55,499 nt of DNA. Origin: Rubricoccaceae bacterium. GTDB taxonomy: Bacteria > Bacteroidota > Rhodothermia > Rhodothermales > Rubricoccaceae. Positions 37,693 to 53,427 of this stretch are shown here, piece after piece (position 1 is the stretch's first letter; each line of letters opens with the position of its first letter). Made by a program: the position numbers and the translations under genes. The stretch is taken from assembly GCA_024639085.1 (NCBI GenBank), contig JAHEJB010000001.1, positions 1 through 55,499 of the forward strand, read 5' to 3'. Below the pieces are notes generated by a model, which saw nothing but the letters and a program-made list of their open reading frames with translations, did not search any database and was not told where the DNA came from.

Positions 37693-39326
37693 CCCCGGTT
37701 TGGAGTTTGCTCGGCGCGCAAAGCTTCTTCCTTTACTCGATCGAGGTAGGCAACGGCTTCCACGCTGTCGTCCGGAATGTCATCCATGAAAACAGCTTCT
37801 TTGATAGCTCCCATCGCGGCTCGTTCGGGGCCTTGGAGGGTTTTCAGAATCTCCTGAAAAAGGTTTCCGCGACGCATGGCTTCGTCCTTGTGGTCCATCA
37901 TGTACGCGTACGCGGCATCGTGTTCGTTGGGGATGTCGCCATCCAGGATGGCTTCACGGATCCACGTCTTCAGAATGCCGACGGCCACGCCTTCTCCGAC
38001 GCCGAGGACCCCCATGATTTCGTTGCCGTCTACGGGCGGTTGGAAGGCACGGAGCTGATCCTTTTCCTCCACTTCGCGCATCTTCTCCTCCACGTAATCG
38101 AAGTTGGAGAGGTAGCGTTGGACCCGTTGAGGGTTCTTGCTGGTGATGTCTGCGCGGACGAGCATCATCAGGTCGTCCACGTCTTCGCCTGCATCGAATA
38201 GCAGGCGCCGAACGGCGGAGTCCGTCACATTGTCATCAACCAATGCGACGGGACGGTGGTGGTAGCGTACCATGTTTTGCACGTATTCAAGCGGCTCGCC
38301 CAGTGGCAGTTTCATCCGACGAAAAATACTCGGAATGTGCTTCCGCGGACCGAGGTCTTCGTGGCCATGAAAGGTCCAGCCGTGTGCGCGCGAAAAGTGC
38401 TTCGTGTCCGGCTTGGCGATGTCGTGCAGCAACGCAGCCCATCGAAGCCAAAGAGCTTTGTCCTCGGCAACCTCACCTGCCATTCCGACTTCTCGTTGCG
38501 CTATGCACAGATTGTCGAGCACTTGCAGCGTATGGAAGAAATTGTCTTTGTGTTTCTGCCCGTCAACGATTTCGACGCCGGCGAGCGCTGTCAGCTCAGG
38601 AAAGATCAGGTCGAGCAGCCCGGCCGCATAGAGGATTTTTATGCCAATGGATGGTTCGGGTGCAGCGACAATTTTCTGCAGTTCGTCCGTAATGCGCTCC
38701 TGGCTCACGATCTCAATTCGCTCAGCCATGCTTTTCATGGCTTCAAAGGTCTCCCGACTGATCTCAAACCCAAGCTGCGTCGCAAACCGCCCGGCACGCA
38801 GCATCCGCAACGGATCGTCGTCGAACGTTTCGGCTGGATCGAGCGGGGTTTTGAGAAGCCCCATTGCAAGATCATTCAGGCCACCGAACGGGTCTACAAG
38901 CACTCCGAACCGATGTTCATTGAGCGCGAGGGCGAGAGCATTCACCGTGAAGTCGCGGCGCTTCTGATCGTCTTCCAGCGAACCGTTTTCTACGACGGGC
39001 TTCCGCGAATCGCGGCTGTAGCTTTCCCTTCTCGCTCCAACAAACTCTAGCACGAGCGTTTCGCCCTCGTGCGAAAGACGGACTCCAGCGGTTCCAAAAT
39101 TTCTATAGACATGGGCGGTCGTTCCGCCGAGTTTCTTGGCGACAGCTTCAGCGAGTTGAATGCCACTGCCGTCGCCAACGGAAACGAAATCCAGGTCCGT
39201 CGTAGTGCGGTTCAATAGGGCGTCCCGTACTGCTCCTCCCACGACGTACGTCTCTATCCCGAGTCGATCGGCAACCGCGCCGATGTCTCGTAGAACTGGT
39301 TCGTAGGGGAGTTGGATATCCGTCAT
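37689..39326 (-). CDS. tRNA nucleotidyltransferase/poly(A) polymerase family protein with HD domain (CCA-adding-like)
   Basis: 'YVVGGAVRDALLNR.TTDLDF', 'RRDFTVNALA', 'DPLRMLRAGRFA'. HD region 'WAALLHDIAKPDT...GHEDLG'. Confidence 0.88.
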   Translation of the reverse strand: MTDIQLPYEPVLRDIGAVADRLGIETYVVGGAVRDALLNRTTTDLDFVSVGDGSGIQLAEAVAKKLGGTTAHVYRNFGTAGVRLSHEGETLVLEFVGARRESYSRDSRKPVVENGSLEDDQKRRDFTVNALALALNEHRFGVLVDPFGGLNDLAMGLLKTPLDPAETFDDDPLRMLRAGRFATQLGFEISRETFEAMKSMAERIEIVSQERITDELQKIVAAPEPSIGIKILYAAGLLDLIFPELTALAGVEIVDGQKHKDNFFHTLQVLDNLCIAQREVGMAGEVAEDKALWLRWAALLHDIAKPDTKHFSRAHGWTFHGHEDLGPRKHIPSIFRRMKLPLGEPLEYVQNMVRYHHRPVALVDDNVTDSAVRRLLFDAGEDVDDLMMLVRADITSKNPQRVQRYLSNFDYVEEKMREVEEKDQLRAFQPPVDGNEIMGVLGVGEGVAVGILKTWIREAILDGDIPNEHDAAYAYMMDHKDEAMRRGNLFQEILKTLQGPERAAMGAIKEAVFMDDIPDDSVEAVAYLDRVKEEALRAEQTPNRG

Positions 39327-39419
39327 CTTCTGTGTACTCCCTCAAAACTAATCCGTTGTTTACAGCGTCCGACAGATGTGCAGCCTAGCTTGATGGTTCT
39401 TATTCCTTTCTCCTCTCCC

Positions 39420-40619
39420 ATGATTCGTCCATTTCTTCTAACCGCGGTGCTGCTCACGTCATCTGTGTATGCCCAGACTATCCCGGTTATCGGCACCTCG
39501 GCTACACTAGACGTAGCGACGTGGAATATCGAGGACTTTGGTGCTGACGGAGGACCGACAAACAATCAGCTTCAACTGGAGAACGTGCTGGCTGTAATCC
39601 GCCAGTCAGACATTGATCTGTGGGGACTGCAGGAACTGAATGATGAAGTGGATTTTGATGCGCTGCTCGACTCGCTCGGCTCGGCCTTTAGTGGTGCCTG
39701 GGTAGATGACGATTTCGGAAACATTGGCTACGGATATGTTTTTCGGAGCGACGTCATCAACGACCTTCAGATTAGCCAGATTCTGACCGGGTCATCGTTT
39801 GAGTTCGCCTATCGGCCCCCCCTCCAAATGCGTGCGGACGTGATATTGCCGGATACGACCGCCGAAGTCCGATTCATCAATCTGCACATGAAAGCGGGTG
39901 GCGCGTTTGAGGACTACGAACGCCGCGTTGCAGCTTCGGAGATTCTAAAGAACTATATCGACAACCTGCAGAGCATTGGGGTCGACGTGATTGTCATGGG
40001 CGATCTAAATGATGAACTGCTGGTGTCCATTTCAAGTGGCCGTCCGTCTCCGTACAGCAATTTTCTGAACGACGACGACTACCTCTTCGCTACCGAACCG
40101 CTAGACCTACCGGGCGACAGCAATGATCGCAATACGTTTTGCTCTAGCTCCATGTGCACGAGCGGATCTGTGATTGACCACATCATTGCAACCGGAACGC
40201 TCGAAGACGATTATGAAGACGATTCTGCCGACCATTTCATCGAGTTGGTTACGGCGCTACCAGGATACACGAGCACTACGTCGGATCACCTTCCCGTGTA
40301 CGCCCGCTTCGACTTCCAGGGGATGGGCACCGCGGTTGCCGATGAAGTGCCAGCGGTGTCTTTTGCCATCGAGGCGGCCTATCCGAACCCCTTTAGGGGC
40401 AACGCGACCCTTTCCTACACAGTAGATCGCCCGGGGCCTGTTGAGATCGCCCTGTTCGATGTTTTAGGGCGTCGGGCCGCAGTAGTCGCCAGCACCTATC
40501 GAACGGCAGGGACGCATCGAATCCTGATTGACGGGGCGTCGCTTGCGCCCGGACTTTACGTCGCTCGGCTGACTTCGAACGGGCAATCGGCAATCACGCG
40601 ACTGGTACGCGCTCAATAA
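39420..40619 (+). CDS. endonuclease/exonuclease/phosphatase (EEP) family protein with T9SS C-terminal sorting domain
   Basis: Signal peptide (start ATG 39420). 'LDVATWNIEDFG', 'DLWGLQEL', 'IVMGDLND', 'SDHLPVYARF'. C-terminal 'AYPNPFRGNATLSYTVDRPGPVEIALFDVLGRR...LAPGLYVARLTSNG' is a Por/T9SS type-A CTD. Confidence 0.88.
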   Translation: MIRPFLLTAVLLTSSVYAQTIPVIGTSATLDVATWNIEDFGADGGPTNNQLQLENVLAVIRQSDIDLWGLQELNDEVDFDALLDSLGSAFSGAWVDDDFGNIGYGYVFRSDVINDLQISQILTGSSFEFAYRPPLQMRADVILPDTTAEVRFINLHMKAGGAFEDYERRVAASEILKNYIDNLQSIGVDVIVMGDLNDELLVSISSGRPSPYSNFLNDDDYLFATEPLDLPGDSNDRNTFCSSSMCTSGSVIDHIIATGTLEDDYEDDSADHFIELVTALPGYTSTTSDHLPVYARFDFQGMGTAVADEVPAVSFAIEAAYPNPFRGNATLSYTVDRPGPVEIALFDVLGRRAAVVASTYRTAGTHRILIDGASLAPGLYVARLTSNGQSAITRLVRAQ

Positions 40620-45998: not shown

Positions 45999-46406
45999 TC
46001 ACTCCTCTTCGTCAGAGGCCGGAGCAGGGCGGACATCCCACAACAACATCTGGTCGATGTCGGCGTAGTCGTCGCCGTCTTCGTCCTTGAATTCATAGTC
46101 GCCGTATTTGTCGCGATTATGCTCGGGGATGCGCTTCCATGTAACTCCGCTCGGATCTACGAACTCCTTCGGGAAGGGGCTCTCGACACGGTATGAAGGG
46201 TGGTAGTTGCGATAGGTCTTGGCCGCTTCGTACAGCGCGGCGCGGCGTGCGCCCGCGCGGGTGGCACTATTGCCCGTTACACGAAACGGAGTGATGTTGA
46301 TAATCGCAATAACATCGTCTTCGTCCTCTTCAGGGTCGAGGTACTCTGGGCGCATCACCTTGAACTCGTCTGGGTGGGGATATGCACTGCGCTCGTTGTC
46401 GAACAT
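45999..46406 (-). CDS. hypothetical protein (135 aa, acidic termini)
   Basis: Clean ATG ORF with coding-like composition. No domain recognised. Confidence 0.55.
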   Translation of the reverse strand: MFDNERSAYPHPDEFKVMRPEYLDPEEDEDDVIAIINITPFRVTGNSATRAGARRAALYEAAKTYRNYHPSYRVESPFPKEFVDPSGVTWKRIPEHNRDKYGDYEFKDEDGDDYADIDQMLLWDVRPAPASDEEE

Positions 46407-46630
46407 AGGAATCTTCTTTCTTGAGAATCAGGGCGCGGAAACTACGATTGCGATGGTTGGGATCCCATTGAGAACACCTTTCCATAATCGCTTTCCAGAG
46501 AAATTCTACCCCGACAAAAAGTAAAAAAGTTCTTGCATGGAGGAACCGCGTGTGCCCAAATTTTAGAGTCGCGCCGTTTGGCCGAGACTCACGCATCACT
46601 CGGATCTCCGCTCGCTAAACCTCCGTCTCC

Positions 46631-46810
46631 ATGAACGACTTTAATCTGTACAACGACTTCGACGAAGATGACGACTTTGATGACGACATCCTGGATGACG
46701 AAGATGAGGATTTTGACGACGACATCGATCTGGATGACTTGGAGGATGACGACGAAGACGACGATGATGATGACGACTTCGATGAGGGTGATCTCGACGA
46801 CGATTTCTAG
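46631..46810 (+). CDS. hyper-acidic 59-aa micro-protein with SSB-C-terminal-tip-like repeats (below the ORF-track size cutoff)
   Basis: ATG 46631 to TAG 46808-46810 translates as MNDFNLYNDFDEDDDFDDDILDDEDEDFDDDIDLDDLEDDDEDDDDDDDFDEGDLDDDF. 40/59 residues are D/E and none is K/R/H. Codon choice is mixed (gac/gat/gaa/gag), so this is not a simple DNA microsatellite. The track only shows the antisense R/H-rich shadow at 46641-46838. Confidence 0.5.
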   Translation: MNDFNLYNDFDEDDDFDDDILDDEDEDFDDDIDLDDLEDDDEDDDDDDDFDEGDLDDDF

Positions 46811-47063
46811 CCTGGGCGAAGGCGGAATTCCTCTTCAATAACGGCTATACATTTTCGGGCCTTCTGTAGTGGGCTAGCCGTTTTCGTTGGCTGCGAGTTT
46901 GATTGGGGCTTGAAGACAAGCTCCAGCCTCTACGAGCGCGAAGTATTGCCGACCTGAATAACGGCTGTCTGATCGAGGCCTCGCGTTGGGGTTGCCGTGT
47001 CTGATGGGGCGGAAGGGCCTCATTTGCGTCTATCCACAAAGTGTGTGAAAACGGGGATATCGT

Positions 47064-47077
47064 GTGGAAAATTCCAC
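47064..47077. promoter_or_regulatory. inverted repeat GTGGAA-AA-TTCCAC in the nrdJ leader (candidate operator)
   Basis: 6-2-6 inverted repeat about 150 nt upstream of the nrdJ ATG. It overlaps a possible -33 'TTG' (47078-47080), which lies 22 nt upstream of 'TATTATTG' (47103-47110, near the Bacteroidota -7 motif TAnnTTTG). Confidence 0.25.
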
Positions 47078-47226
47078 TTGCGCTCGAAGGAAATCTTCCC
47101 TTTATTATTGTCCCCCGACGCGCCCCAGCTACTAATCGCGGCAGAGGATTATAGACGTGGGTTCGGAGGGATTTTGCGCAGATCGCTCCTTCCCCGGACG
47201 ACATCACCCACACCACCTCTGGAAAT

Positions 47227-50226
<3,000 letters not shown>

Positions 50227-52837: not shown

Positions 52838-53272
52838 CTACCAAGCGTGAAGCCGGACGAATACAGGCTCGCCGGAGGCAACCGCCTCTTCCGCAGCGAC
52901 CTCGAAGGCTTCTATGACGCTGGAGTGCTCCTCAACAACAACATCCGCTTCCGGGATTTCGGCTGAGCCAGACGTGACCGAGGCACAGGTCACCTTGATG
53001 CGCATGGGCGTATAGATCCCCATCGTAAGTGCGCCTACAAGCTGGTTGAGGAACGTGAGTTCGGTCTCAACAATCGCCACGCCATCTGGGCAGGCAGCAG
53101 CTGCGTCAACCGTCTTGGGAGGCACAAGGCCGTACACCCAACTAGAGGCGAAGGGTTGATCAACAACAACAGGTCCAGGCGGGAGACCCGTTGTGAGCAC
53201 GGTTGCGTGGTAGCATCCTGTAGCAGCGAACGCAACAACGACGAGAAGGAGAGAGAAGCGAAGGGGGACCAT
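52838..53272 (-). CDS. Bor/Iss-family lipoprotein with acidic C-terminal extension
   Basis: Lipobox 'FAATGC'. 'WVYGLVPPKTVDAAAACPDGVAIVETELTFLNQLVGALTMGIYTPMRIKVTCA' matches the lambda Bor core (KTVDAAKICGG...ETQQTFVNGLLGFITLGIYTP...C). About 45 extra acidic residues follow. Start at ATG 53272. Confidence 0.8.
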   Translation of the reverse strand: MVPLRFSLLLVVVAFAATGCYHATVLTTGLPPGPVVVDQPFASSWVYGLVPPKTVDAAAACPDGVAIVETELTFLNQLVGALTMGIYTPMRIKVTCASVTSGSAEIPEADVVVEEHSSVIEAFEVAAEEAVASGEPVFVRLHAW

Positions 53273-53427
53273 GGAACTGTGGGTTAGGTGATTGGGGAGT
53301 TCTGCGGCCATCAATGCCAATAACAACCTACATCCGCCAAGCCGCGAGGATTGACTGCCCGGTCACAGTCTCCCACTCTTGATGGTGAGAACGTGTTGCT
53401 AGAACAGCATCAGTTAACTAGCGTTAT

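Follow-up and report, generated by a model that had tools for sequence, protein, structure and literature searches.

Is a short reading frame that would encode little but aspartate and glutamate a real gene and, if so, what could its product do in the cell? The question is raised by an open reading frame (ORF) located in a stretch of 55,499 nucleotides from a Rubricoccaceae bacterium of the order Rhodothermales (assembly GCA_024639085.1, contig JAHEJB010000001.1, positions 1 to 55,499 of the forward strand), hereafter called the window. The ORF occupies 46631..46810 on the plus strand, starts with ATG, ends with TAG and encodes a hyper-acidic small protein of 59 amino acids (aa). As argued below from 46 related ORFs, it is very probably a translated gene. 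Regarding its function, the reading preferred here, plausible but held tentatively, is that the protein acts in trans as a disordered, nucleic-acid-like polyanion which is anchored by its C-terminal Phe at basic, nucleic-acid-binding surfaces.

The translated product of the ORF is MNDFNLYNDFDEDDDFDDDILDDEDEDFDDDIDLDDLEDDDEDDDDDDDFDEGDLDDDF, followed by TAG. It consists of 34 Asp and 6 Glu (40/59 residues) plus uncharged residues, with no Lys, Arg or His and, hence, a net charge of -40; the hexapeptide DFDDDI is found twice, at residues 15 and 27, and the chain terminates in DDDF-COOH. In these respects an earlier note on this DNA, made from the letters alone, had described the ORF correctly. 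It was also right in placing a class II, B12-dependent ribonucleotide reductase (RNR) gene (nrdJ, 47227..50226) in the same orientation, 416 nt downstream: the assignment is confirmed by Pfam (Ribonuc_red_lgC, Ribonuc_red_2_N and TSCPD) and by NCBIfam (NF005122 at 1331 bits). Synonymous codons are mixed, as had been stated, with a GAC:GAT ratio of 20:14 which equals that of the long genes of the window (258:178). The DNA itself is weakly repetitive, since TRF detects one 30-nt GAC/GAT run (score 32-36) and the direct repeats inside the ORF share 63-72% identity. When the peptide is shuffled, some repeated hexamer appears in 13% of shuffles, while DFDDD[IL] appears twice in 0.26% of them (the latter being a post-hoc test). 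The strong part of the evidence against chance is comparative, not internal.

Standard searches say little about such a protein. In a phmmer search against 5.8 billion proteins, 591 word candidates were obtained, none of them at E <= 0.01, and there were zero matches to the acidic protein in Pfam, NCBIfam, PHROGs and PDB sequences; the family is thus effectively undescribed. Furthermore, none of ten predicted family proteins (that of the window included) was present in an exact look-up in a collection of 15 billion proteins, and the window peptide has been called once, in a Logan contig. Because the HMMER-based null result follows from the low complexity of the acidic protein, the family was instead detected with an amino-acid composition scan (at least 13-14 Asp/Glu per 20 residues) of two sets of retrieved loci: (i) 80 genome loci, found via the N-terminus of nrdJ, which all belong to Rhodothermales or Bacteroidota metagenome-assembled genomes and isolates; and (ii) 80 metagenome loci, found via the upstream neighbour of the acidic ORF, a gene for a conserved hypothetical protein of 135 aa (here p135). 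Individual loci are cited by their L numbers.

A hyper-acidic ORF lies at the same place and in the same orientation in 32/80 genome loci, to which L034 adds a copy cut by the locus edge, and the metagenome loci contributed approximately 20 more, for a total of 46 distinct proteins. Carriers in culture are Rubrivirga sp. IMCC43871, R. litoralis F394 and Rubrivirga sp. IMCC45206 (L011, L012 and L022). The related DNA covered amounts to about 1.5 Mb, and this syntenic position was the only one in it with hyper-acidic ORFs; all 46 unique homologues are encoded on the strand opposite to p135. Within the loci examined, the family is, judging from sequence, specific to the order Rhodothermales.

The family members measure 49-92 aa and contain 49-68% Asp/Glu, about one quarter L/F/Y/I/V/M and less than 1% Lys plus Arg. 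Composition is kept, while sequence, length and the type of repeat (L-, F-, Y- or E-rich) drift. Two features are specifically conserved: an acid-run-plus-Phe C-terminus and, in many clades, an N-terminal motif. All 46 members start with ATG. Between the last acidic residue and the stop there is a single residue in 36 members and there are two residues in 8; of the remaining two members, one has three residues there and the other has none. Phe closes the protein in 33 members, and the others end in Ile (4), Tyr (3), Leu (3), Val (2) or Asp (1). Elsewhere in the family Phe makes up 33% of the hydrophobic pool, which gives the terminal enrichment a binomial probability of 7e-8 (not corrected for phylogeny); terminal Phe is also found in members of the Leu type, for instance L012. 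Thirteen members share the non-repetitive N-terminal motif P-x-A-[FY]-[ED] directly before the acidic core, and its carriers include several clades outside the Rubricoccaceae-type clade of the window.

Closely related copies differ from each other as coding sequences do. Differences at codon positions 1, 2 and 3 amount, respectively, to 5, 11 and 48 between L053 and L079; 5, 11 and 35 between L020 and L023; 2, 0 and 7 between L011 and L022; and 3, 3 and 10 between L045 and L065. Third-position differences dominate in these pairs, which upholds the earlier proposal that selection acts on the amino acids and not on a DNA repeat. All indels between close pairs preserve the frame, and codon usage is that of the genome. 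With its frame preserved, the ORF is, from this comparison, a genuine and conserved coding gene.

These data bear directly on the possibility that the ORF is non-functional, i.e., a compositional by-product (a GAY-rich stretch) or a region expressed from the antisense strand, in Ser-rich, Arg/His-rich or Val/Ile-rich frames. The in-register antisense frame is indeed fully open in 27/32 loci, a Ser (TCN) antisense frame shares its wobble position with the sense GAN codons, the acidic gene is rarely called by annotation and the copy has decayed in the nearest relatives of the window. But the openness of the antisense frame is compositional in origin and, in GAN-rich DNA, frame openness does not discriminate between strands; for this reason, the start, the stop, the termini and the terminators were relied on instead. 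It is in the sense frame alone that one sees the ATG starts, the stop one or two residues past the acid run in 44/46 members, the terminal Phe and the conserved N-terminal motif, and the Ser antisense frame is interrupted in most loci. By strict criteria, 8/33 loci have a sense-strand intrinsic terminator no more than 150 nt behind the stop, as opposed to 0 reverse-complemented segments and 2.7% of random windows. Besides, the gene has a genome-typical codon usage and has been kept across a deep divergence, its neighbour p135 being 58-73% identical among aligned homologues. Absence of function is, in consequence, a very unlikely explanation.

Two antisense ORFs can be read in this part of the window: (i) a Ser/Lys-rich ORF of 36 aa (46615-46725, minus strand); and (ii) an Arg/His-rich ORF of 65 aa (46641-46838, minus strand). 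Both mirror the GAN-rich composition of the sense frame and are no more than its shadows; gene callers could be misled by them.

Behind the acidic ORF of the window, sequence and fold give a hairpin (46840..46888, plus strand) whose paired arms are AACGGCTA (46840-46847) and TAGCCGTT (46875-46882), with TTCGTT behind the second arm. This hairpin is possibly a weak terminator; a consensus terminator scan of the window did not call it. The 5' arm is, at the same time, the copy of ATAACGG with which the nrdJ control array described below begins. Among loci, the distance from stop to terminator ranges from 9 to 95 nt, i.e., the geometry is not constant.

The acidic ORF and p135 diverge from a shared intergenic region of 224 nt (46407..46630), with a G-poor, pyrimidine-rich leader that lacks a Shine-Dalgarno (SD) sequence. 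The same holds for the family: SD cores precede 0/33 acidic ORFs and 1/63 p135 genes, compared with 13% in background sequence, and the leaders of both genes (20 nt upstream) are G-poor, pyrimidine-rich and often CCTCC-like. In Bacteroidetes, SD-independent initiation is the norm (PMC6847099), and these leaders suggest that the same applies to the Rhodothermales studied here. Since p135, a clearly real gene, lacks an SD sequence as well, its absence is no argument against translation of the acidic ORF. As for transcription, a candidate promoter in the window is made up of CTTGCAT (46532-46538) and TAGAGT (46564-46569). Their 25-nt spacing makes the assignment weak, and it is not claimed. In any case, many loci have CTTGC[AC] and a TA-rich element ahead of the ATG of the acidic ORF, and a conserved pair resembling -35 and -10 elements is clear in the Rubricoccaceae clade (TTGCCC-N18-TAGACT); in L053 and L079 the promoter-like pair is TATTTTTG.

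The invariant partner of the acidic ORF is p135 (45999..46406, minus strand, in the window), which adjoins every acidic ORF found. Measured from the start of the p135 match, which is the p135 ATG in those cases in which residue 1 opens the match, the ATG of the acidic ORF lies 142-479 nt away in all loci. There are 403 homologues of p135, all of them named 'hypothetical', and an alignment of p135 proteins has a mean column identity of 69%. The protein occurs in Rhodothermales-type genomes only, and in about 70-75% of loci its gene sits next to nrdJ and is transcribed divergently from it. The protein matches no Pfam or other sequence family. Its AlphaFold2 (AF2) model is confident (pLDDT 82.3), and the best Foldseek matches in the PDB are double-stranded RNA-binding domains at E 0.03-0.5, none of which reaches 1e-3. 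The C-terminal tails of the p135 homologues are acidic-rich and range from approximately 4 to 25 residues; among these homologues, no fusion of p135 to a long acidic tail was found. In short, p135 gives no firm clue to function.

The position of the acidic ORF upstream of nrdJ had led the earlier note to link it with DNA-precursor and replication genes. Such a functional link finds no support. The p135/acidic-ORF pair exists without nrdJ in four loci (L091, L096, L097 and L103), in two of which (L091 and L096) the gene downstream of the acidic ORF encodes a MarC-like membrane protein, and extra DNA falls between the acidic ORF and nrdJ in L006, L031, L047 and L063. Furthermore, nrdJ possesses a control region of its own, located between the acidic ORF and the nrdJ start codon, which is also found 150-500 nt upstream of nrdJ in loci that lack the acidic ORF. 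Given that the pair exists without nrdJ and that this control region is independent of the ORF, the acidic ORF is not part of the nrdJ module, and their adjacency is inherited synteny.

The control region of nrdJ contains two types of element: (i) DnaA boxes; and (ii) an array of ATAACGG copies. The perfect DnaA box TTATCCACA occurs upstream of nrdJ at 0.96/kb versus 0.01/kb elsewhere, and a box with at most one mismatch is present in 77/81 loci; the boxes of the window lie at 47030-47038 (CTATCCACA) and 47063-47071 (TGTGGAAAA). In turn, the 900-nt segments that precede nrdJ in 81 loci contain 270 copies of ATAACGG/CCGTTAT, a density of 3.8/kb versus 0.057/kb elsewhere (approximately 67-fold). 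Each locus has 2-5 copies, which occur in both orientations and are frequently separated by 22-23 nt or by about 100-120 nt. The extended form is approximately [CG][AC]ATAACGG followed by G-poor bases. The window carries copies at 46838-46844 and 46958-46964, degenerate ones at about 46878-46884 and about 47047, and another inside nrdJ at about 47282-47288. Both types of element are present with or without the acidic ORF and absent where the p135/ORF pair has no nrdJ. The array matches no Rfam family, no family reaches its gathering score in the window, and positions 46400-47260 give only noise at E <= 5; there is thus no known riboswitch or leader between the acidic ORF and nrdJ. From its distribution, the array looks like an operator array for a regulator of class II RNR, and the boxes suggest that DnaA controls class II RNR in Rhodothermales. 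The region of the DnaA boxes was also considered as an origin of replication (oriC), which it probably is not, as the window has no GC-skew switch there. A further observation on nrdJ is that the C-terminus of its product (50140-50226) is Cys-rich and resembles a zinc ribbon (CPNCG...CPNCGNTSGCG).

The separability of nrdJ weighs on two explanations that would tie the acidic ORF to its neighbour. According to the first, the protein would mimic the tail of a class I RNR beta subunit: its acid-Phe C-terminus would imitate the C-terminal peptide of R2, bind the RNR large subunit and modulate dNTP synthesis. R2 C-terminal peptides, such as FTLDADF, do inhibit RNR by competing for a site on R1 with a high specificity for the last residue (PMC3483043), and the acidic ORF adjoins an RNR gene in most loci. 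However, the adjacent enzyme is a class II NrdJ, which has no beta subunit, and the acidic ORF persists where nrdJ is not adjacent. The likeness is restricted to the pattern of acid plus terminal Phe, since the acidic protein stands alone and is not the C-terminus of a ferritin-like beta subunit. This mimicry is considered highly improbable.

The second explanation is that of a cis-acting leader ORF, in which translation of the acidic run would abort depending on Mg2+ or on the state of the ribosome, as in E. coli mgtL, and thereby control a hairpin or terminator and the read-through to the next gene (nrdJ in the window). The E. coli proteome reportedly contains no poly-acidic sequences of this kind (20D type), on which bacterial ribosomes abort (PMC11162784). 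Acidic nascent chains destabilise bacterial ribosomes, most strongly within the first ~30 residues, and mgtL senses Mg2+ by this means. The acid core of the family starts at residue 1-31 (median 13), always within the first 31 residues, behind a non-acidic N-terminus of 0-30 residues. Like mgtL-type leader peptides, the acidic ORF is Asp/Glu-rich, lies upstream of another gene with which it is co-oriented (here nrdJ), and is followed by RNA structure (hairpins or terminators). Nevertheless, its 49-92 codons are 3-5 times the length of such leaders and far above what a sensor needs, and it has conserved termini, namely the Phe at the end and the motif at the N-terminus. The variable distance between stop and terminator and the change of downstream gene (MarC-like in L091 and L096; insertions in L006, L031 and L063) do not fit a leader either, and nrdJ keeps its DnaA-box and ATAACGG region in loci without the acidic ORF. 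A role in cis is hence unlikely.

AF2 gives the acidic peptide of the window a pLDDT of 55.7 and a pTM of 0.13, with no secondary structure, in a run on a single sequence. In the family, hydrophobic residues are spaced by 1-9, mostly 2-5, residues with no helical period, and the acidic runs between them are mostly of 1-4 residues; the longest run per protein is 4-7 residues in 43/46 members, and that of the window, with 12 residues, is the longest uninterrupted one in the family. Bulky residues beside acidic runs counteract the destabilisation of the ribosome (bioRxiv 10.1101/2021.02.02.429294). The F/L/Y punctuation may, then, partly serve translatability by keeping the ribosome from aborting.

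The tip of the protein recalls SSB, the protein that binds single-stranded DNA. The conserved C-terminal tip of bacterial SSB is (M)DFDDDIPF, and its terminal Phe docks into ExoI, RecQ, PriA, Ung and chi. The acidic protein resembles this tip in its Asp run, in its C-terminal Phe with a free carboxylate and in its disordered context, and the copy of the window contains DFDDDI twice. The earlier note had consequently proposed a decoy that titrates or regulates SSB-interacting proteins; on this view, the DDDF end and the DFDDDI units would fill the pockets for the SSB C-terminus (ExoI, RecQ, PriA, chi and others) or the OB fold of SSB itself, titrating the SSB interactome. The acid run and C-terminal Phe are conserved in the family, the neighbourhood has a replication flavour (nrdJ under DnaA boxes) and the SSB C-terminal peptide is known to bind both partners and its own OB domain (PMC3936761). 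The comparison across the family is less favourable: penultimate Pro and a PF end are found in 0/46 members, DFDDDI in 2/46 and DFDDD[IL] in 8/46, and in 13/46 members the last residue is not F but I, Y, L, V or D. Internal motifs cannot offer a free carboxylate, and the link to nrdJ is separable. Unlike SSB, the acidic protein has neither an OB-fold domain nor a Gly/Pro/Gln-rich linker and is acidic throughout; tblastn with E. coli SSB gave no match in the window or in any locus retrieved. Therefore, of the docking-tip idea, the acidic run with a C-terminal aromatic residue stands as the most conserved feature, while its identity as an SSB tip does not, and the decoy in its specific form is distinctly unlikely.

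The physical principle proposed for the acidic protein is known from other acidic tails. The tails of T7 gp2.5 and gp4 are also disordered poly-acidic stretches that end in Phe, but they belong to a phage and are attached to folded proteins, whereas here the tail-like chain is the whole protein, two to three times longer and chromosomal. The gp2.5 tail reportedly competes with single-stranded DNA (ssDNA) for the binding cleft of gp2.5 itself. Both T7 tails bind basic patches of the DNA polymerase and require their terminal Phe, the C-terminal Phe of gp2.5 being essential (PMC12339929 and its references). In RNA polymerase (RNAP), the delta C-terminal region (83 aa, net charge -47) is intrinsically disordered (PMC7749165); this region of the Firmicutes subunit RpoE and region 1.1 of sigma-70 are, like the acidic protein, disordered polyanions with interspersed hydrophobic residues, and both compete with nucleic acid in the RNA polymerase channel. 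In contrast with delta, the acidic protein has no folded RNAP-binding N-terminal domain, shows no homology and belongs to a different phylum. A factor provided in trans could find a place in Bacteroidetes, whose sigma-A has no region 1.1 (PMC6847099).

DNA mimics such as Ocr, ArdA, Ugi and DMP19 are likewise small and strongly negative, and they block DNA-binding proteins. They are, however, folded scaffolds with carboxylates arranged like the DNA backbone, while no fold is predicted for the acidic protein, which has no match in PHROGs or the PDB. DSS1/Sem1 and prothymosin-alpha are small, mostly Asp/Glu proteins with spaced aromatic residues that act as disordered DNA mimics or as chaperones of basic proteins; with them, from a different domain of life and without homology, the analogy is one of mechanism only.

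By analogy with these systems, the reading preferred here can be stated in steps: (i) the carboxylate runs of the acidic protein would engage basic nucleic-acid-binding surfaces; (ii) its acid-run-plus-Phe C-terminus, with a free carboxylate, would insert into a hydrophobic or basic pocket; and (iii) the protein would thereby compete with DNA, RNA or the acidic tails of other proteins for at least one nucleic-acid-handling protein. It is the combination of a conserved acid-Phe C-terminus with the N-terminal motif that leads to a disordered polyanion with a docking tip. The physical principle would be the same as in the SSB C-terminus, the T7 gp2.5/gp4 tails, the delta C-terminal region and sigma region 1.1. 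The R2 C-terminal peptides, with their last-residue-specific pocket on R1, are a further precedent for a docking tip. The acidic protein would work like known acidic tails and polyanionic competitors and is a member of none of these groups, being chromosomal and, as far as seen, confined to one order.

Several points weigh against this trans-acting polyanion. Its invariant neighbour p135 is itself acidic and, therefore, no obvious electrostatic partner; the AF2 prediction for the acidic peptide used a single sequence; and composition leaves the antisense frames open, too. With acidic runs that begin no later than residue 31, translation would be poor in E. coli, which makes the expression level uncertain. 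Moreover, the sequence and length of the gene evolve fast, and it is absent from 30/62 genome loci in which p135 lies next to nrdJ. On the nrdJ tree, the acidic ORF is near-universal in the Rubricoccaceae-type clade of the window and patchy in other clades. In the closest relatives of the window, whose nrdJ is 87% and whose p135 is 85-90% identical to those of the window, the ORF has decayed: in L001 (3302-4000) the alignment reveals an in-frame TAG after seven codons plus a deletion of approximately 96 nt, and in L082 (1-521) and L084 (1-449) the acidic stretch is short or degenerate. This pattern indicates a recent loss in the sub-lineage of the window, which itself retains the 59-aa copy. 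In view of such decay the gene is dispensable, and it could have a bulk-property role only.

A bulk polyanion would buffer Mg2+, Ca2+ or polyamines, or act as a 'Hero-like' solubiliser against aggregation, so that charge density and length alone would matter. Repeated gene loss agrees with this, as do the predicted disorder of the acidic protein and the fact that composition is kept while sequence, repeat type and length (49-92 aa) drift. Bulk charge, by contrast, leaves unexplained the enrichment of terminal Phe with the stop right behind it, the conserved N-terminal P-x-A-[FY]-E motif and the strict pairing with p135. It is therefore regarded as possible, if doubtful.

A bolder version of the trans-acting polyanion can also be formulated, i.e., a free-standing 'acidic tail without a body': an ssDNA-like polyanion with an acid-Phe tip that would regulate in trans a core nucleic-acid machine of Rhodothermales, the target being either the SSB interactome/replisome or RNA polymerase, and whose synthesis might depend on ribosome destabilisation and thus respond to Mg2+. 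In its RNA polymerase variant, the protein would take the place of an acidic element (region 1.1 or one of the delta type) which Bacteroidetes-type sigma-A does not have. Taken as a whole, this version is improbable.

The surroundings of the acidic ORF are those of an ordinary chromosomal region, in which no mobile or defence genes were found around the ORF. Nearby, an endonuclease/phosphatase-family protein with a type IX secretion sorting domain is encoded at 39312-40619 and, downstream, a Bor-like lipoprotein domain at 52838-53326 on the minus strand.

As it stands, a whole order of bacteria keeps a gene with approximately 60% Asp/Glu from near its N-terminus, despite the abortion of ribosomes on such sequences, and the family exemplifies how small proteins can be conserved and yet escape the usual pipelines. 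Were the protein only a bulk polyanion, it would be a curiosity of a single order. If, on the other hand, it is a trans-acting mimic of nucleic acid or of acidic tails, it would represent a simple and portable regulator of DNA and RNA enzymes, as well as a natural test case for the handling of acidic nascent chains by the ribosome. And if the 'tail without a body' were true, Rhodothermales would harbour a previously unrecognised class of chromosomal bacterial regulator, invisible to homology searches.

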